64,000 bases of DNA, taken from positions 45,195-109,194 of IMG/VR virus record IMGVR_UViG_3300026382_000009, one strand, 5' to 3'. A program made the position numbers and the translations under genes. This stretch comes from a virus. This document shows positions 25,602-54,412 of this stretch, piece after piece (positions within the stretch are counted from its first letter, which is position 1; every line of letters starts with the position of its first letter). The notes beneath the pieces are model-generated. The model did no database searches. It was not told the DNA's origin and worked only from the letters and a program-made list of their open reading frames with translations.

Positions 25602-28340
25602 TTAACTTGAGCAACTTTCGCAGACATCATTATCTGTTTCAGCTTTTAAACTATTCATATAATATAATGTCTTAACTCCTAAACTTTCAGCAAATATAAT
25701 ATCTTCTATAATTTCAAAAGCACTTTCAGGATTTTTGTAATAAAGATTTACTGATTGTGATTGGTCTAAAAATTTTTGTCTAATTGCTGCAAGTTCTATA
25801 AGACGCTTTTGTGGAATATCCCAAGCCAATTCATAATACATTCTATTTTTATTTAGATTAGGTGCTAAAAATGGTAATGTATATGTTCCTTCTTTTATTA
25901 TTTTGTATTGTCTAATTGGTTCTATTCCTTCTGTGCTTGAAATGACTAATCCAGAAGTATTATGACTGATACATCCATTACTTAATACATATTCTTCATA
26001 TTCAGGAACATGTATATCCCAGGTTGGTTCAACACCTACTTTTTTAACTGATTTAACTCCTAATAATAAATTATTTTGTTGTTTAATATTATCCCCATCT
26101 TCTAAATCCTTTACTTGTTTCCAAATTAATTTGTCATCCTCTGTTTCAACAAGCAATAAATGGTTACCTGTAAATTTATATTTATTTCCATCTTCAAATT
26201 CTACTTCATAAACTTCTCTTTTTCCATTATAATATATTTTATTAGTTTCTTTATAACCAAATCTTGTTTTTACATTAATAGGGGATTTTAATTCATACCA
26301 ACCAAGAACTTCTAAGTTTTCTATTGTTTTGTAATCAATACCTCCTTCTTCAAGAATTTCTTGAATTGATTTGATACCATCTTTAGTTATTATCTCATTT
26401 TCTTTTGATTGGCATTGTGTAGGCGCTATTGCAAATAAATTTTCAAATCTTATTCCAAATTCTTTGAGTTCTTTTCTTAAACTTTCCCAATCTTTTTTCA
26501 TTTCAAAATTATATTTTTCTGGAAGTTTACTCAATTCCCAAGGAAATAAACCTTTATCCCAAGATGTTCCAGAAATTCCCTTATATTTTCCTCTTTCTTT
26601 AGCTAATCTTATTGCTTGCTTGATAAAATGATATGTCAAATCTTCAAATAATTCGTGTGTAAATCTTAAAACTTCATCATCAGTAAATTTTATACCTTTA
26701 CTCGCTAATAGATTTGCATAATTATTTACACCTATTCCTATACTTCTTAAATCTCTATTAAATTTTTCACCTAAACGAACTTTGTATTTTGCTACATCAA
26801 ATGCATTGTCCATACCTAATAAAATACTATAAGCTAATTCATCTTTTTCTTCTTCTGTCATTTCATACCATTTAACTAAATTAACAGAAGAAAGATTACA
26901 AATACCTATCAAACCATCATATTTTCTTACATTTATCCATTTATCATTATCTGAATCTTTAATTAACTTATCTTCTATAAGTCTAATAGGTTTTGTTCTA
27001 ACAGTCACCTCCATGCAGAGATTACTCATTTTTATAACATCAGGTGATACTCTCTGTTCATTTACATTATCCATACTCATCCAATAAATATTTCCTGTCT
27101 CACTTCTAACTTTAGCATAAAGAAATGCTAATTCTCTTGCTTTAATTTTTCTTTTTCTGATACCAGGTTTTTTAGAATAATAATCATACCACTTATCAAA
27201 TTCATCACCGTATGCTTCTACTAACTCAGGAGTATCTAAAGGATCAAATAAAAATACTTCTTCATCATTTATAATAGCTTCAGAAAATCTTCTATTCCAT
27301 TTCATTGTATATTTTAATTTTCTAGCTCTTTCTTCATCAGCACCACCAGCATCTCTTAACATAATTATTTCTGGTGACTCATAATGCCACCAAGCAAAAT
27401 TAACAACCGCTGCACCACTTCTAACACCTCTTTGATTAAATGATGAAATAACACTTTCAAATAATTTAATAAAATAAATAACTCCAGATGTTTTTCCGAC
27501 TAAATCTACAATTGCTCCTATAGCTCTTAACAATGTAACATCTATTCCTATTCCACTTCCATATTTAGAATAAATACCCATACTTCTTGCTACTTCTAAA
27601 ATACTTTCAGAATCATCATCTACTTCTATTAAAACACAACTTGTTGGATTAAAAACTCTTTCTAAAGCATTCACTATCATAGGTGTAGGAGCAGTAAATT
27701 TATGTAAAGATAAATCATCGTATTTTCTTTTAATTGTTTCTAATCTGTTTTTATCTTTATAATGTAATTGAATAGCAACAGCCATATATCTATGTTGAGG
27801 CAATTCTAAAAATTTTGTTTTACTGTATTTTTTAGCATATTTCTGCATAAACAATTCAAATCCACCAAACGTAAAAAGAAAATCTCTTTCTGGTTTAATA
27901 TAATCTCCAAGTTCTTTTAATTCTTCTTCTGTAAAAGTGTCAAAAATTTCTTTATTATAAACCTTGTATTGAATTCCTTTTTGAATAACATCTAAGTAAT
28001 TAGGATATTCATTTCTACTTACATTCCAAACTTCTTTTCTATATCTCAATATCAATAAATTTTTTGCTATATCATCCCAAACAGGATATAAATCAGAAAT
28101 AAAATTTGCACATGTTTCAATTACTTCATCTAATAATTTAATAACTGAAATTTTATTTCCTATTTTCAAATTAATTGCATTTAATACGTCTTTAACAAAA
28201 GTATCATCATATGGTTCTTGTATGCCTGCTTTATTTACAGCCCATTTAATGACTTTATAAAGTTTTTCTTCAGAATAAGGTTCTTCTCTTCCATCTCTTT
28301 TTATGACAATATGTTTTTTTCCTTCTTTTAATTCGATCAT
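25602..28340 (-). CDS. nrdA: Ribonucleotide reductase class I alpha subunit with ATP cone and a cis intein
   Basis: VIKRDGREE ATP cone, TSCVL, SNLCME, CNLSS, AIAPTQ/TS, EGIEP, KTLYY, C-terminal CESC. Confidence 0.96.
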   Translation of the reverse strand: MIELKEGKKHIVIKRDGREEPYSEEKLYKVIKWAVNKAGIQEPYDDTFVKDVLNAINLKIGNKISVIKLLDEVIETCANFISDLYPVWDDIAKNLLILRYRKEVWNVSRNEYPNYLDVIQKGIQYKVYNKEIFDTFTEEELKELGDYIKPERDFLFTFGGFELFMQKYAKKYSKTKFLELPQHRYMAVAIQLHYKDKNRLETIKRKYDDLSLHKFTAPTPMIVNALERVFNPTSCVLIEVDDDSESILEVARSMGIYSKYGSGIGIDVTLLRAIGAIVDLVGKTSGVIYFIKLFESVISSFNQRGVRSGAAVVNFAWWHYESPEIIMLRDAGGADEERARKLKYTMKWNRRFSEAIINDEEVFLFDPLDTPELVEAYGDEFDKWYDYYSKKPGIRKRKIKARELAFLYAKVRSETGNIYWMSMDNVNEQRVSPDVIKMSNLCMEVTVRTKPIRLIEDKLIKDSDNDKWINVRKYDGLIGICNLSSVNLVKWYEMTEEEKDELAYSILLGMDNAFDVAKYKVRLGEKFNRDLRSIGIGVNNYANLLASKGIKFTDDEVLRFTHELFEDLTYHFIKQAIRLAKERGKYKGISGTSWDKGLFPWELSKLPEKYNFEMKKDWESLRKELKEFGIRFENLFAIAPTQCQSKENEIITKDGIKSIQEILEEGGIDYKTIENLEVLGWYELKSPINVKTRFGYKETNKIYYNGKREVYEVEFEDGNKYKFTGNHLLLVETEDDKLIWKQVKDLEDGDNIKQQNNLLLGVKSVKKVGVEPTWDIHVPEYEEYVLSNGCISHNTSGLVISSTEGIEPIRQYKIIKEGTYTLPFLAPNLNKNRMYYELAWDIPQKRLIELAAIRQKFLDQSQSVNLYYKNPESAFEIIEDIIFAESLGVKTLYYMNSLKAETDNDVCESCSS
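25959..26414 (-). mobile_element. Cis mini-intein (152 aa, no homing endonuclease) in NrdA
   Basis: APTQ|CQSKENEIITKDG...FTGNHLLL (block B TxxH)...WDIHV...SNGCISHN|TSG. Confidence 0.92.
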
Positions 28341-29100: not shown

Positions 29101-29547
29101 TCATGAACATAGAAAATTTATTAATTTTTGTTTTAAATTAATTTTTTTCATGTCAAATTCCTTTAAAAGATATTTAGCTTTGAGTATGAGAGATTCAATA
29201 TTATATTTTTCATATAAACCTTTACATATATCAAATCCTTTAGTATTCATTTCATCATGAAGATTTTTCACATAAAATAATTCATCCATGTCTTTGCTTG
29301 TTATTCTTAAACTCACGTCGGTACCATATAGTCGTAATTCTAAAGAAAAATTTTCTCCATCTATCTTTATTTCTTTTGTCAAAGAAAATAAAATATTACC
29401 ACATGAAATCTTACTTATTCCAATTGATTTTGCAAATTTCTCAAAATCTTTATGAATATCTTTATCCATTAATTTCATTTGAAGTTTGTGTAATTCTTTT
29501 ATTTTTTCTAAAAATTTTTTGTATATCATATTTTCTCCTTTAAACAA
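29101..29547 (-). CDS. Hypothetical protein
   Basis: ORF; true start is probably the ATG after AAAGGAG near 29529. Confidence 0.5.
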   Translation of the reverse strand: MFKGENMIYKKFLEKIKELHKLQMKLMDKDIHKDFEKFAKSIGISKISCGNILFSLTKEIKIDGENFSLELRLYGTDVSLRITSKDMDELFYVKNLHDEMNTKGFDICKGLYEKYNIESLILKAKYLLKEFDMKKINLKQKLINFLCS

Positions 29548-32056
29548 TTAATTTTTCTATAACTTTTAAATAATCATCACTAATATAATAACTATTATAT
29601 TTGTATTTGTATCCAAGTTCTTTTAAAAAAGATTTTAATTCTTTATTCAATTCTTTAGGAACAAATCTTTGTTTTAGTTTTAAATTATCTTTGTAATACA
29701 GCATCTTTTTCATCAGTTTAATTTTTTCTAAACCTATTCCATTTTTTTCTAAAATACTAAGATAATTTACTAAATCTTCTTTTTTCATTAAAAATAATTT
29801 ATGATTTATCATTTTATTAAAATCTTTTTTATTTTTTAAAATTATTTTTAAAAGTTGAATTTTTTCATCTTCAGAACTAAAGGTCAAAAACTTTTCATAG
29901 TATTTTATCTTTTGTTCTTCATTGTATGTTAAATCATTATTTTTTAATCTATTAATTAAAAGTTCTATTTTTTGTTGTTCTTTTTCTTTAATTTGTCGTT
30001 TGATTTCTTTTAAATTTAATGTCGTTTTTTCTTCAACAATTTTTATAGATTGTGTATTAAATTGATGCTCAAGCAATTTCAAAAAACTTTTTTTATGATT
30101 AACTTCTAATAAATTCAAAAAAGTTTCAATTTCAAACATAAATTCACCAAAATTATTTATAATTTTGTTGCCAAATTCATCAAAAGAAAAATATATTGAT
30201 TCATCTAAAAAATATAAATATTCATTTTTTAAAATTTCTTTATCTATAATTTTAAATTTTTTTATATCTTTTACAAAAAAAATTATTTTTTCAGCGAATC
30301 TATTTCTTTTTAATTGCTGTAATGAAGAAATTACATCTATTGTTTGACTTTCATCTATATGATAATGTATTTTGACATTTGGACAATTTATTGAAATTCC
30401 AACAGTAATAGTTGGTGTATAAACCAATGCATCCCATGTAGCTTCTTGTGAAAACGTTTCAAATATTTTATTTTTTTCTTCTTCAGACGTGTCCCCATTT
30501 AAAAATACAACTTTTTTTCCTTTTTGTTTCAAAAGTTCACTTATCAAATATCCTGTATTTTTGTTTGATACAGAAATAGTAATTTTTTCTTTTTCATTCA
30601 AAATTTTTGAGATAATAGTATTTTTATCAGTAAATTGAATTAATTCAATATTATCTTTATATTCATTAAAAATATATTTCTTTTTTCTATTTTTGAAAAA
30701 ATCAGGTTCAATTTCTAAAAACGCATCAAGTAAAATGAGTTTAAATTTTTTATTTGTTAATATTTTATATAATTTCATTTTATTTAAAACTGATTTATCA
30801 GTTAAATTAGATAATAAATGAATAAGCAATGAAATATATTCATCAATTATTACAACATCAAAATTTTTGATATCATATTTCCATAAGCTGTCAAACTGCG
30901 TTACAAGATGTCCATTATTCTGATAATCATCGTAATAAATATTAATGTTATACTTTTTTGAAATATCTTCAGCTAAACTTCTTCTATTTGTTATGAATAA
31001 ACATCTTTTATTATTTTTTGTAAAATAATTAAGATATTTAGCAATCAAATTTGATTTTCCTGTTCCCATTGGTGATTTTATTTTTAAAACATCGAAATCT
31101 TCTATGATTTCTAAAGATACATATCTTTCATTTATAAAAATTGTATTTTTTTGCTTTAATTTCAATTTTATGGCATTTATTGATAATTTTTCTAGTTTTT
31201 TATCTAATTTTTCTTCATTTTTTCTATTTATAAATTCTTTTACAGATTTCAATTTAGAAATATCTTTATAAAAGTTTATTGATTTAGATGGATCAAAGTG
31301 ATGTAAAATAAAAGGATTATTTTTAAAAAGAAAATATCCTTTAGGTGTTTTTTCATTAGGATGTCTAAAAACTAACAAATCTCCTTTATCTTGAACAACA
31401 GAAAATCCAAGACCATTAAGATATTTTATACTCTCAAATAAAATATCTTCATATCCTTCATTTTTAATTATTTTCTTTTTAATTTTTGGGAGTTTTTTTA
31501 TTTCACCTTTGTGAAATATTACAAAATCATTATTGAGAGTTGGTGCTTGAAATGTTGCTTCTCTAATTACAGATAAATCTGTTTTTCCTAATCCTTTGAT
31601 TAAAAAATTTATATTTAAAAGAAATTGTTTCAAAGACTCTTCATTATTTGAACCTTCTACTAAAATTGCACCTTTTAAATTGTATTTTCCTTTTCCATAA
31701 CTTCTACTAGGTAAAACGAAAAAATAATAATTTTCTTTTTTAAGAATTTCAACAATTTTTTCTGAATCTTCTTTTGAAAAAACATCATCAATATCTAAAA
31801 CAATATATTGAACTTGTTTACAAAGATAATCTTTTAATTCTCTTTTTAATCTTTTTTTGATGACAGGTTCTTTGATATTATAACAACGATTTAAATGAAA
31901 ATGATTTATGAAATAATAAGGAAGATTTTCAAATGAAGTTTTAATTGTCCTAAATTCGAAAGTATTGTCACCATATGGAGAAATAGGAAATTTAGAAGTG
32001 CTTTTTGAATTAAAAATTGTAATTTTTATATTATTAATATTTTTATCCATTTTCAC
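29540..32056 (-). CDS. SF2 helicase of origin-binding (UL9-like) type with N-terminal primase-like region
   Basis: KSPMGTGKS, TNRRSLA, IIDEY, YTPTITVGIS, QQLKRNR; N-terminal VLDIDD. Confidence 0.7.
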   Translation of the reverse strand: MKMDKNINNIKITIFNSKSTSKFPISPYGDNTFEFRTIKTSFENLPYYFINHFHLNRCYNIKEPVIKKRLKRELKDYLCKQVQYIVLDIDDVFSKEDSEKIVEILKKENYYFFVLPSRSYGKGKYNLKGAILVEGSNNEESLKQFLLNINFLIKGLGKTDLSVIREATFQAPTLNNDFVIFHKGEIKKLPKIKKKIIKNEGYEDILFESIKYLNGLGFSVVQDKGDLLVFRHPNEKTPKGYFLFKNNPFILHHFDPSKSINFYKDISKLKSVKEFINRKNEEKLDKKLEKLSINAIKLKLKQKNTIFINERYVSLEIIEDFDVLKIKSPMGTGKSNLIAKYLNYFTKNNKRCLFITNRRSLAEDISKKYNINIYYDDYQNNGHLVTQFDSLWKYDIKNFDVVIIDEYISLLIHLLSNLTDKSVLNKMKLYKILTNKKFKLILLDAFLEIEPDFFKNRKKKYIFNEYKDNIELIQFTDKNTIISKILNEKEKITISVSNKNTGYLISELLKQKGKKVVFLNGDTSEEEKNKIFETFSQEATWDALVYTPTITVGISINCPNVKIHYHIDESQTIDVISSLQQLKRNRFAEKIIFFVKDIKKFKIIDKEILKNEYLYFLDESIYFSFDEFGNKIINNFGEFMFEIETFLNLLEVNHKKSFLKLLEHQFNTQSIKIVEEKTTLNLKEIKRQIKEKEQQKIELLINRLKNNDLTYNEEQKIKYYEKFLTFSSEDEKIQLLKIILKNKKDFNKMINHKLFLMKKEDLVNYLSILEKNGIGLEKIKLMKKMLYYKDNLKLKQRFVPKELNKELKSFLKELGYKYKYNSYYISDDYLKVIEKLIV

Positions 32057-44775: not shown

Positions 44776-45138
44776 TCAAATTCCCATTTCTAATTTTTGC
44801 CATTCTATAAATAATTTGATATCCCATCTAAAACTTTCAATATTTTTTAAATGTTTTTCTAAATATTCAATGTCATTTTCAAGTTCTTTTAATTTATATT
44901 TTAACTCAATATATTCTTTATCTCTTTCAATAAAATCTTTTATTTCATTTTGTTTCAAAGAAATAGGAAAATCATTTTTATAGTAAAGATATCTTTCCAA
45001 CCATAAAGAATCAAGCTCTTTTGAAACTTTTATTAATTCATAACGCTTTTGTTTAATTTCTTTTAAAACTTTTTCATATTCACCAGCAATCTCTCTAAGT
45101 TTTTCTTTTATATTTGTATTATCAAATGTAAAATCCAT
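44776..45138 (-). CDS. uvsY: Recombination mediator UvsY-like
   Basis: Helical, with YLYYK, IEYLEKHLKNIESFRWDIKLFIEWQKLEMG; adjacent to UvsW. Confidence 0.75.
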   Translation of the reverse strand: MDFTFDNTNIKEKLREIAGEYEKVLKEIKQKRYELIKVSKELDSLWLERYLYYKNDFPISLKQNEIKDFIERDKEYIELKYKLKELENDIEYLEKHLKNIESFRWDIKLFIEWQKLEMGI

Positions 45139-45139
45139 T

Positions 45140-46732
45140 TTAATCTCCTATTTGAATTTCTTTTTCTATAATAGGATAAGAATTTTGTAAATACAAATTA
45201 ATTCTTTCATCTGCATGTTTTAGTATATAATTTTTCTTTTTTCTACAACTTGTAAAATCATCTACATAATCAAAAATTTTAACTTTTTCTTTTGACTCAT
45301 GTTGACGCATTCCTCTTCCAATACTTTGATTAAGAATTATAAAAGATTTAATACTAGAAACCAAATGTATATTATGAATTTTCTTTATATTAACTCCCGT
45401 TGATAATGTTCCAAATGTTGCAATTAATATACCACCATCTTTTAATTCAAACATTTTTCTTATTTCTTCTCTTTTTTCTCCTTTTACATCACCTCTAATA
45501 AAGAAAATGTTCAAATCATCTAAAACAATAATTTTATCATGTTTTACATCATTTTTTATAAGATTTCTTGATTGAATAATATAATATTTTGAATTGTCTT
45601 TTATAGATTTGATTTCTTTTTTATAAATTAAATCTTCATTAGGAACATCTAAATTTAATTTTAATTTAATAATTTCTTTTAACAAAGTTTCACCATGAGT
45701 AATTTTATTATAAAGAATTAAATTATTTTCTTTTTTGTTTAAAGAAAGTTTATTTACTATTTTAGCTATAAAAATGTTTCTTACATTCAAATCTTCTATA
45801 AATTTAACTTCTTGTTGATACGTTTTACATTTTTGCCAAAATTCTTTACAAATCTCCTTATTGTAATTTAAAAAGAACATGACAACTTCAACAGGTGTAG
45901 CATATCCTTGATTAATAAGTTCTTGAGGAGTAATAATTGTGATAGGTTTACCCAATGTTGAAAGAAGTGTAAATTTATCTACACTGTTCTGAGGGAGTGT
46001 TCCTGTTAAACCTATTTTATATTCAGCATTTACAGAAGCTTTAAGTATTTTATTAAGAGAATCAGATTTTGCAACATGAGATTCATCAATTATGACAAAA
46101 TTAGCTTTAGGTAATAAATGCATAGCATTTTTCAAACTTTGCCAAGTTGATATAACAACATCCTTTTTAAACTCTTTTTCTTTTCCTGAATAAATTTTAT
46201 GAATGTATTTATCTAAATCTTTCCAACCATATTCTTTAAAATCACTATACATTTGTTCTACAAGATTTATTGTTGGAACAACTAAAACACCTTTTAATCC
46301 TTTGGATAAAAGATATCTAATAATTACATACAAAACAAAACTTTTACCTGAATTATGATGAACTATGTTATTTTGAACATAACACTCTTCTTCAAAATCA
46401 ATATTGAAATCAATCCATTCTTGCTTTTTTAAATCTTCAATTGAAACAATTTTTTTTGTGTCAAACAAATTACCTTTTAGTATTTCATCTCCTATTTTTA
46501 AATTTGAAGAAGACTCCCAAATTGGTTTATTTTTATCTTTTTTTAATAAAAAATGTGTAATAGAACATTTTATTGATGAACCATCATCAAATGTAATTTT
46601 TTTACCATCTAAATCTTTTTTAATAAAATAATCATTTATTTTTTTAAATCCAAATGGTGTTTCAATTTTTACATTTTTTCCTTGTTTTATTAATTCAACA
46701 ATTTCACCAAAAGTTCTTTCTTCTATTTTCAT
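45140..46732 (-). CDS. uvsW: Split intein C-fragment (127 aa) fused to C-terminal part of UvsW helicase
   Basis: CSITHFL (block B), WIDFNI (block F), IVHHN|SGKS, then VPTINLVEQ, STWQSL, DESH, GLTGT, STGVNI, QSIGRGMR. Confidence 0.92.
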   Translation of the reverse strand: MKIEERTFGEIVELIKQGKNVKIETPFGFKKINDYFIKKDLDGKKITFDDGSSIKCSITHFLLKKDKNKPIWESSSNLKIGDEILKGNLFDTKKIVSIEDLKKQEWIDFNIDFEEECYVQNNIVHHNSGKSFVLYVIIRYLLSKGLKGVLVVPTINLVEQMYSDFKEYGWKDLDKYIHKIYSGKEKEFKKDVVISTWQSLKNAMHLLPKANFVIIDESHVAKSDSLNKILKASVNAEYKIGLTGTLPQNSVDKFTLLSTLGKPITIITPQELINQGYATPVEVVMFFLNYNKEICKEFWQKCKTYQQEVKFIEDLNVRNIFIAKIVNKLSLNKKENNLILYNKITHGETLLKEIIKLKLNLDVPNEDLIYKKEIKSIKDNSKYYIIQSRNLIKNDVKHDKIIVLDDLNIFFIRGDVKGEKREEIRKMFELKDGGILIATFGTLSTGVNIKKIHNIHLVSSIKSFIILNQSIGRGMRQHESKEKVKIFDYVDDFTSCRKKKNYILKHADERINLYLQNSYPIIEKEIQIGD

Positions 46733-46800
46733 ATTAACTCCTATAAATTTTTATGTTAATCTTCAATTATAACTCTTATTTTTTCATTTTTATCTAGACA
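46352..46800 (-). mobile_element. Naturally split intein: IntN 46759-46800 (14 aa) and IntC 46352-46732 (127 aa)
   Basis: SATG|CLDKNEKIRVIIED*, then a 23-nt spacer with AGGAG, then MKIEERT...HHN|SGKS. Confidence 0.9.
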
Positions 46801-47244
46801 ACCTGTTGCAGAAATAAGAATACAATTTTTATTATTTATAGCTTCAACAATAGCTTTTATTTGATAATCTCTTGGTTTAAATGGTGGATTTAATGAGTTA
46901 ATGAATTCTTTAATTTCTTCTTCAGTTACTTTTTCATTATTTGAATCTATATTTTCGTATTCAAATTCTGGAAATTTATTTAAAATTAATTTTACTAATC
47001 CTCTTGGTATTATCATTCCAGATGGTGTTAAAGAATAAAATTTCTTCTTTCCATCCCATAAACCTGCTCTAAAAGCAGGTGTAAATCTATATCCATCAAC
47101 ATAAATTGAAAGCATATTCATGAGTTTTAACCGTAATTCCATTCCTTCTTCAGTATTAGGAATTTCTATTAAAGAATATGAATAATTTATATCTTTTATT
47201 TTCACATTAATCCTTTGATTTAGAATTTTAACCTTTATATCCAA
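46756..47244 (-). CDS. uvsW: UvsW helicase N-terminal part fused to a 14-aa split-intein N-fragment
   Basis: YRFTPAFRAGLWDGK, PRDYQIKAI, ILISATG, then CLDKNEKIRV (intein block A). Confidence 0.92.
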   Translation of the reverse strand: MDIKVKILNQRINVKIKDINYSYSLIEIPNTEEGMELRLKLMNMLSIYVDGYRFTPAFRAGLWDGKKKFYSLTPSGMIIPRGLVKLILNKFPEFEYENIDSNNEKVTEEEIKEFINSLNPPFKPRDYQIKAIVEAINNKNCILISATGCLDKNEKIRVIIED

Positions 47245-52750: not shown

Positions 52751-54412
52751 TTATCCTTTTCTTAAAAGATATTTTAAAAATACATTAGTATCATAAACAT
52801 TTTTTACATGAAGTGATGGTAATTTTTTAATCATATCTTTATCATTTCCATTTATTTCATCACCAATATAAAACACTTTATTTTTATCTATATCAATTAA
52901 TTCAAGCAACTTTTTAAAATTATTATATTTATTATTGTCTTTTTTCATTATATCAATAGTTGAAATACCTGCTTTAATAACTTGTAAATCAGGTAGTTTA
53001 ATTAACAAATATTTATGTAGAACTTCTCTATATTCATAATCTAAAAATCTTAATGAAATAATACAATTATTTCTATTTTCAATTTTTGAAACATTGAATG
53101 ATATATCTCTCAAAACATCAAAAATCTCATTTAATTCATTTGTTTTTAATTCAAAATTTTTATAAATAATTTTATTATCTTTATAAATAGTACTTCCATA
53201 ATTTGTCGCATAATAATTACATTTTAATTCTTTAGGAATTTCAGAAAGTTTTTTACCTGTAAAAAGTATTATTTTGTATTTATCATAAAGTTTATTTATC
53301 AAATTATTATTTTCTAATGAAACATCTACATCTTTTATATTTCTAGAAAAAATAGTATCATCAAAATCAAATATCAATGTATTAAAATCATCAAAATTAA
53401 AATAACTGTCAAAAATTGTAAATGCTAACTCATCAGGATCATGTTTATCTTTATTTTTTATTTTTTCATTGATAACAACAGGAATATCTAACTTTGAATA
53501 AATTTTTGTATGAGATATAATTTTTGAAACATCATAATTTAGACTTTTTAAAATAATTTTAAGTTCTTCTTCTAAAGAATACCCTATCATATCTTTATCA
53601 CGTGTAATATTGACCACAAGATATTTTTCTTTTTCTTTTATTGCTTCTTTAAATCCTTTAGTTTTATATGTTGGTATTAGTGAAGAAAATTGTGTTCCTG
53701 AACTAAATATTATTAAATCACTTTTTTTAATTACTTTTTTAGCTCTTTCAGACAAAATTGGAATTTTTTCGTTTCCATATTTATCAATAAAAAATATGTC
53801 AGTAATTCTGTTGTTAGGATTATTCCAATCAACTATTTCAGCTTCATCATATATATTAACTGATTTCTCAGTTTTTGCGCATAAAAATAATGATTCATCA
53901 GAATTAACAATAACATTTTTAGGTAAATTAAGATATTCTGCCATAATATCAGCCGCTTTTTGTAACGACTTATTATTAATATAAGCAAGACCACCATATA
54001 CAATATTAGCAATAGAAAAATCTACATATCTTATTTTATGTGAAAGTTTTTGTTTAAAATACACTTCAACAGCTTGTTTAATTTCATCAGGAAAATCTGA
54101 AACTAATTCTTTTATTTTATATTCAGCATCTTTATAAAACGTGTATCTCTTTGATAAAACATTAAAAATTTTTTCTGATAAATCTGTTTTAATTTTATCT
54201 CTATATAATTCATAATCTAAAAATTGTTGTTTTCTGACATCAGATGGACCGAGTATTTCACCATTAAAAACTTTTCTAACAATACCAGTAGAAAGACCAT
54301 TATCATACGCATTTACTAAAGTATACATATTATTAATATCTAAATATTTAGAAAGTCCTTTTTTTAATTGTTTACTTCCTGTTCCTCCTGAAATTATTAA
54401 CACTTTCATCAA
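52751..54412 (-). CDS. CofD/YvcK (UPF0052)-like domain fused to a HAD IIB phosphatase/phosphosugar mutase
   Basis: ISGGTGS, NAYDNGLSTG, GPSDVR, SSGTQFSSLIP; then FDFDDT, FTGK, GISTIDI, IGDEINGND. Confidence 0.82.
   Translation of the reverse strand: MMKVLIISGGTGSKQLKKGLSKYLDINNMYTLVNAYDNGLSTGIVRKVFNGEILGPSDVRKQQFLDYELYRDKIKTDLSEKIFNVLSKRYTFYKDAEYKIKELVSDFPDEIKQAVEVYFKQKLSHKIRYVDFSIANIVYGGLAYINNKSLQKAADIMAEYLNLPKNVIVNSDESLFLCAKTEKSVNIYDEAEIVDWNNPNNRITDIFFIDKYGNEKIPILSERAKKVIKKSDLIIFSSGTQFSSLIPTYKTKGFKEAIKEKEKYLVVNITRDKDMIGYSLEEELKIILKSLNYDVSKIISHTKIYSKLDIPVVINEKIKNKDKHDPDELAFTIFDSYFNFDDFNTLIFDFDDTIFSRNIKDVDVSLENNNLINKLYDKYKIILFTGKKLSEIPKELKCNYYATNYGSTIYKDNKIIYKNFELKTNELNEIFDVLRDISFNVSKIENRNNCIISLRFLDYEYREVLHKYLLIKLPDLQVIKAGISTIDIMKKDNNKYNNFKKLLELIDIDKNKVFYIGDEINGNDKDMIKKLPSLHVKNVYDTNVFLKYLLRKG

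Follow-up and report, generated by a model that had tools for sequence, protein, structure and literature searches.

The 64,000-nucleotide stretch analysed here (the window) covers positions 45,195 to 109,194 of the IMG/VR virus record IMGVR_UViG_3300026382_000009, a 109-kb phage genome with terminal repeats and a guanine-plus-cytosine (GC) content of 23%. The phage is T4-like and very AT-rich, with many A/T runs in its DNA, and its uvsW gene is divided into two adjacent genes, both on the minus strand, which have kept their original order and orientation at a single locus. At the ends that face each other these genes carry the two pieces of what is very probably a naturally split intein, with an N-terminal fragment (IntN) of only 14 residues and a C-terminal fragment (IntC) of 127. 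All coordinates below are window positions unless a related locus is named.

The upstream gene has two candidate starts, a TTG at 47244, which would add 13 codons, and a GTG at 47205, which gives a 149-aa product. The GTG is the most likely start, because an AGGA lies 5 nt upstream of it and public gene calls also give 149 aa. Counted from there, the N-terminal part of the host protein (the N-extein) occupies 135 codons (46801..47205, minus strand) and ends in ILISATG, the first half of a Walker A motif. The C-terminus of the gene product reads KNCILISATG-CLDKNEKIRVIIED-stop, in which the final 14 codons (46759..46800, minus strand) are IntN, with Cys1 directly after SATG; Cys1 is the first splicing nucleophile, and IntN supplies strands beta1 and beta2. 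The TAA stop codon (46756..46758, minus strand) is at the same position in L004, L008, L016 and L051, four of the related loci described below.

The halves are separated by a spacer of 23 nt (46733..46755, minus strand), in which a Shine-Dalgarno AGGAG (46742..46738) is placed 5 nt ahead of the ATG (46732) of the downstream gene; the AGGAGTTAATATG motif of the spacer is conserved in L003, a locus of a sister phage. The spacer holds no open reading frame (ORF), no terminator-like site was found between the halves, and a promoter scan did no better than on shuffled sequence. The downstream gene (46732..45140) encodes 530 aa, the first 127 of which are IntC (46352..46732, minus strand), with block B as KCSITH60, block F as W106-I-D108-F and block G as H125-H126-N127. 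These are followed at once by SGKSFVLYV and the C-extein (45140..46351, minus strand; 403 codons plus stop), whose first residue is Ser+1 and whose opening SGKS is the other half of the Walker A motif. The two ORFs lie in different frames; the frame of the upstream gene contains two stops, the TAA and then a TAG in the spacer, and in that of IntC a TAA stands 18 nt ahead of the ATG. Simple read-through therefore cannot fuse the two ORFs. A prior reading of this locus, made from the letters of the DNA without database searches (the sequence-only reading), had described the gene ends, the 23-nt spacer with its AGGAG, the frame change, the intein blocks and the SGKS, and had remarked that no homing endonuclease gene lies between the halves; all of these observations hold.

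The N-extein matches Pfam UvsW_N (E=1.9e-8) as well as PHROG 16259 and PHROG 16 ('DNA helicase'), and the C-extein matches Pfam ResIII (E=2.5e-18), DEAD and Helicase_C from residue 128 of the downstream protein, in which D216-E217-x-H219 is conserved. The upstream gene product matches PHROG 16259 up to profile position 142 and the downstream product from position 142, which places a single cut in the helicase, within Walker A (SATG/SGKS). The best annotated UvsW matches are in Campylobacter phages and cyanophages, and the downstream protein aligns with Campylobacter phage UvsW/helicases at 37% identity from residue 123 on. Judged by its UvsW_N domain, its SF2 core and its T4-like recombination neighbourhood, the host protein is UvsW, a T4-type SF2 helicase.

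Related loci are designated here by L numbers. The DNA pattern W.DF-15aa-HHN-S/T-GK returned 19 viral and 36 metagenomic stretches. The related locus L005 encodes an intein-free contiguous UvsW of 540 aa that reads LLSATS/SGKSF at the exact junction. The window product, spliced in silico (135 + 403 = 538 aa), is 67.6% identical to it and aligns without a gap at the junction, which bears out the earlier proposal that removal of both intein pieces restores the Walker A motif. Contiguous alleles are present too: after removal of duplicates, the pattern set contains 14 contiguous (cis) mini-inteins of 127-152 aa at the identical site, alongside about 18 split loci that also include the N fragment, these being non-redundant counts from one narrow DNA pattern. 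When the intein region was used in a word-indexed search of proteins, only the query itself came back. An exhaustive search of representative proteins gave 152 clusters (50% identity) at E<=1e-3, dozens of which are C-terminal UvsW fragments that open with the intein and about 20 of which are contiguous; HHN/SGKS is found in most of roughly 150 representative matches. The search for contiguous or intein-free alleles that the sequence-only reading had recommended thus recovered both. Its presentation of the arrangement as a great rarity was overstated, given that uncultured phages commonly carry the same intein allele, of which there are 14 cis forms, some 18 split forms and dozens of clusters at 50% identity, and that a 14-aa IntN is found in at least five lineages.

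These lineages are represented by the window, L004, L008, L016 and L051; IntN is 15 aa in L042, and in most other split members it is 20-45 aa, owing to an extra helix before the break. Both window fragments lack this helix, as do several of the contiguous homologues, so that the 14 residues make up the entire IntN. The window IntN and IntC taken together (141 aa) are collinear with the contiguous homologues, with the break after residue 14, in a loop of variable length. At this point L020, L015, L022 and L010 have no extra residues, and other contiguous forms have an insertion of 10-35 residues. In an AlphaFold2 (AF2) model of the contiguous homologue L020 (mean predicted local distance difference test score, pLDDT, 92.8) the break corresponds to a turn between strands 11-16 and 19-24, before the first helix (model numbering, Cys1 = 5); that helix belongs to IntC, as H8-16 of the IntC model.

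That the 127 residues ahead of the helicase core form an intein domain is indicated by both sequence and predicted structure. Among sequences in the PDB, the best single-sequence match of IntC is CatC (6dsl; E=1e-5), followed by gp41-1 (E=7e-5) and VidaL (E=1e-4), and a family profile matches VidaL (PDB 6vgv) at E=5.7e-15. The AF2 model of the window IntC alone has a pLDDT of 92.2, and its best full-domain match by Foldseek is VidaL 6vgv, with a template modelling (TM) score of 0.81, a root-mean-square deviation of 2.1 A and 25% identity. Over both models the TM score to VidaL is 0.77-0.81, and the Foldseek matches listed are almost all inteins, with a few bacterial intein-like (BIL) and Hedgehog HINT domains. 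C1-L-D is invariant in seven N fragments, and H60, W106, D108, Y118, H125, H126, N127, S128, G129 and K130 are invariant in a 16-sequence alignment. The domain thus has the features of a class 1 intein, namely Cys1, the block B His, His-Asn followed by Ser+1, the HINT fold, and a site that closes up in an intein-free homologue; it also has those of a split intein, with separate genes that carry their own stop and start signals and a break right after beta2. The identity of the host as UvsW, the natural and atypical split and the 14-aa length of IntN, all put forward from the letters alone, are supported in this way by Pfam and PHROG, the family profile, the IntC model and the relatives.

Comparison of the window with the sister phage represented by L003 and L004 gives ratios of non-synonymous to synonymous substitution (dN/dS) of 0.14 for IntC and 0.09 for both exteins. 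The value of 0.14 means that the intein is kept by selection; on this measure IntC is under purifying selection and is maintained as would be expected if UvsW activity depends on splicing. The dS values are 0.47 for IntC and 0.15 for IntN, compared with 0.84-0.90 for the exteins. Synonymous divergence of the intein is thus about half that of the exteins, a difference compatible with the intein having passed between the two phages more recently than the host gene did; it is no more than a hint, the counts being small.

In the sister phage the two halves are further apart. The L004 N fragment is 88% identical to that of the window and ends in the IntN CLDKNEKIRVIVED and a stop, and the IntC-UvsW-C protein of L003 is 86% identical to its window counterpart. 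L004 and L003 come from one metagenome, in which they form the ends of two contigs that share 12 nt, and their join is spanned by a single continuous 407-aa ORF on the opposite strand (L004:6434-6947 plus L003:1-722). This ORF is homologous (blastp E=1e-17 to 1e-52) to ORFs that lie between the halves in L006 (5054-6037, minus strand), L007, L012 (2650-3750, minus strand), L016 (398-1564, plus strand), L019 (2219-3259, minus strand) and L024 (183-1214, minus strand). Members of the family are free-standing, about 330-410 aa long and found in either orientation. They share a central region with YKxYC..KTK.. and repeated RYG.EEG and KYG.E.GT..W..RQ..WQ.T motifs, while their C-terminal domains vary, some being Vsr-like and others different. 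In two of them the C-terminus bears a Vsr-like motif (GDYWH...GYEVLIIWE), with weak matches to DUF559/MTES_1575; no secure Pfam or PHROG family was found for these ORFs, and their family profile had no sequence match in the PDB. They are probably homing endonucleases in which a shared DNA-binding module is combined with swapped nuclease domains, the label of Vsr-like homing endonuclease being drawn from motif resemblance in two members and from context.

A second pair with and without the intervening gene is formed by L016, where the halves are 1105 nt apart, and L008, where the gap is 120 nt, both with a 14-aa IntN. Adjacent halves without an endonuclease gene are also found in the metagenome contigs L036/L044, L048 and L057, with gaps of 50, 144 and 9 nt and IntN of 25, 26 and 36 aa, respectively. 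The intervening gene thus seems to have been lost more than once.

We conclude, with a probability of about 0.88, that the locus encodes a functional, naturally split class 1 intein in the Walker A motif of the UvsW helicase of a T4-like phage, broken at the S1 position (after beta2) and derived from a fractured gene. A few observations weigh against this conclusion. The Pfam Intein_splicing score of IntC alone is 22.8 bits, below the gathering score of 35.8, and the canonical Thr of block B is replaced by Ser57 (S-I-T-H); in printed alignments, Ser is found at this position also in gp41-1 (SEEH) and Cat (SDNH). As to origin, the direction of change, by which the endonuclease gene was lost from the window phage rather than gained later by its sister, is purely an argument from parsimony.

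The intein pieces might instead act as a clasp that docks the helicase halves non-covalently, leaving UvsW as two chains with the intein domain still attached. This would, however, put a 141-aa domain into the P-loop, where it would separate SATG from SGKS, an arrangement not easily squared with ATP binding, and would leave unexplained why all catalytic positions (Cys1, His60, His126-Asn127 and Ser+1) are present and invariant in the family and why intein-free and cis-splicing-type alleles occur at the identical site; we regard it as quite improbable. Still less likely is that a mobile element broke uvsW and left non-functional fragments on their way to loss. The gene is physically broken, to be sure, and UvsW is not the only helicase of the phage, which encodes at least one more (an 838-aa ORF at 29540..32056), yet the low dN/dS ratios given above, obtained against a sister phage at a dS of 0.5-0.9, are not those of a decaying gene. 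Both ORFs are moreover intact and have good ribosome-binding sites, frameshifts or stops were not seen in the halves of close relatives, and the split state has been retained in several diverged lineages. Gene decay in relatives, which the sequence-only reading had named as a finding that would count against splicing, was accordingly not seen.

An error of assembly or sequencing, or a recoding event, could also produce the appearance of a split if the intein were in truth unbroken and the stop and shift of frame were mistakes or were bypassed by the ribosome, and DNA of 23% GC with many A/T runs is a substrate in which such errors might be looked for. Joining the ORFs would nevertheless require read-through of two in-frame stops as well as a frame change, against the TAA upstream in the IntC frame, and the canonical AGGAG-N5-ATG is conserved in L003. 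Independently assembled relatives stop after the same 14 residues, and in several of them some 1.1 kb of other coding DNA sets the halves apart; an artefact is scarcely credible. Assembly error, pseudogene and frameshift or read-through were all rejected as readings of the locus.

For a functional split intein of this kind, we infer that the fragments would associate and splice as follows. The two genes would probably be co-transcribed, each translated from its own ribosome-binding site, and the IntN strand would dock on the first strand of IntC and complete the HINT fold. A thioester would then form at Cys1, the acyl group would move to Ser+1, and cyclization of Asn127, aided by His126, would release the intein; an O-to-N shift would yield the 538-aa UvsW with its SATG-SGKS motif restored. 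The split itself probably dates from the insertion of a free-standing homing endonuclease gene into this loop of a contiguous mini-intein, the gene having since been lost from the window phage. The window is most likely an endonuclease-less derivative of a fractured gene of which the sister phage still carries the intervening gene.

A stronger version of this interpretation, in which the 14-aa IntN is the shortest natural one to support efficient trans-splicing, or in which splicing is conditional, through redox at Cys1 or the stoichiometry of the products, and times UvsW during infection, we consider unlikely as a whole; the part concerning the shortest efficient IntN is plausible, and the regulatory part is speculative. 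The related suggestion that the split acts as a post-translational switch on recombination-dependent replication finds no support here; the occurrence of contiguous, endonuclease-bearing and intein-free alleles among the relatives appears rather to fit the pattern of a selfish element.

The neighbourhood is that of a T4-like recombination locus. The uvsY gene (44776..45138, minus strand; Pfam UvsY, E=2.5e-10) is directly downstream of the C-terminal uvsW gene, and a DNA ligase gene identified by Pfam is upstream of the split uvsW. The order uvsW-uvsY is found also in the intein-free L005, which has a 120-aa UvsY homologue. In the sister phage an N6/N4 DNA methylase gene (L003:2371-3192, plus strand) follows uvsW in place of uvsY, and is a further insertion polymorphism at the uvsW locus. 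Elsewhere in the window, the NrdA gene (25602-28340) holds a contiguous (cis) mini-intein of about 152 aa (25959-26414, minus strand) with the junctions APTQ/CQSKENE and CISHN/TSG; its identity to the UvsW IntC is 26%, and its Pfam Intein_splicing score of 47.1 bits is above the cut-off. A separate gene (52751-54412, minus strand) encodes a 553-aa protein with a CofD/YvcK-like domain (PF01933, E=6e-22) and a HAD-type hydrolase domain, a pairing that is unusual in a phage protein.

In protein semisynthesis there is a demand for very short natural IntN fragments, since an IntN of this size can be made as a peptide. The 14-aa Cys1/Ser+1 IntN, which selection has kept in at least five lineages of phages, supplies a set of natural variants for testing. 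The uvsW site also provides an evolutionary series at a single position, from intein-free through a contiguous mini-intein and a split intein with a nuclease gene to a split intein without one; two sister pairs differ only by the nuclease gene, and real genomes thereby document the model of fracture followed by loss. The accepted understanding of how inteins or UvsW work is unchanged.

In natural inteins with an atypical split, IntN is 15-37 aa long (PMC13014065), the range that the sequence-only reading had given. Their break may be at the S1 position, after beta2, as described for VidaL (IntN of 16 aa) and PolB16 (15 aa), or at S2, as in the AceL-TerL-type inteins of terminase (PMC13014065). 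VidaL (PDB 6vgv/6vgw) is the closest solved relative of the UvsW intein: both are broken at S1, both depend on cysteine, and the crystallized VidaL chain ends in SH(A)SGK, with the same SGK at the start of the C-extein. VidaL differs in its IntN of 16 rather than 14 aa and in having SHN where the UvsW intein has HHN, and the two are only about 25% identical. The activity of VidaL has been measured, whereas the UvsW intein is known from sequence and models; what is known for the latter, in turn, is its genomic setting, with UvsW as the host protein, the two genes side by side and a sister phage that has an endonuclease gene.

The PolB16 intein of OarG is likewise naturally split at S1 with a very short IntN, which at 15 aa has been called 'record-short', the shortest characterized natural one (PMC10189870); the UvsW IntN, at 14 aa, is one residue below this published record. 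Unlike the UvsW intein, with its Cys1/Ser+1 and its position in a helicase P-loop, PolB16 is cysteine-less, uses Ser/Thr nucleophiles and resides in a DNA polymerase, and it was not matched in PDB searches with IntC or the family profile. AceL-TerL, GOS-TerL and the consensus 'Cat' resemble the UvsW intein in being phage-derived, in having a P-loop ATPase as host and in combining a short IntN with a long IntC. They differ in their IntN of 25-37 aa, in the S2 split after the first helix, which the UvsW break precedes, and in their terminase host.

The genetic arrangement is closest to the 'fractured genes' of Dassa et al. (2009; PMC2677866), in which split intein halves flank a free-standing homing endonuclease gene, in some cases Vsr-like. 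As in those genes, the halves of uvsW keep their order, orientation and locus, the host is a phage enzyme of DNA metabolism, and the sister phage has an intervening ORF, of a family in which some members have a Vsr-like C-terminus. The full arrangement is present in L004 plus L003, L006, L012, L016, L019 and L024, but not in the window, which has no endonuclease gene; loss of the endonuclease is step III of the model of Dassa et al., whose fractured genes include the endonuclease-less gp41-7 locus (PMC2677866). UvsW was not among the hosts in that study, and an N-proximal break such as that of the UvsW intein was seen there only in a terminase locus (PMC2677866). The UvsW split intein thus adds a further case to a class already known, though rare, that of VidaL and PolB16, and is not a new kind of system.

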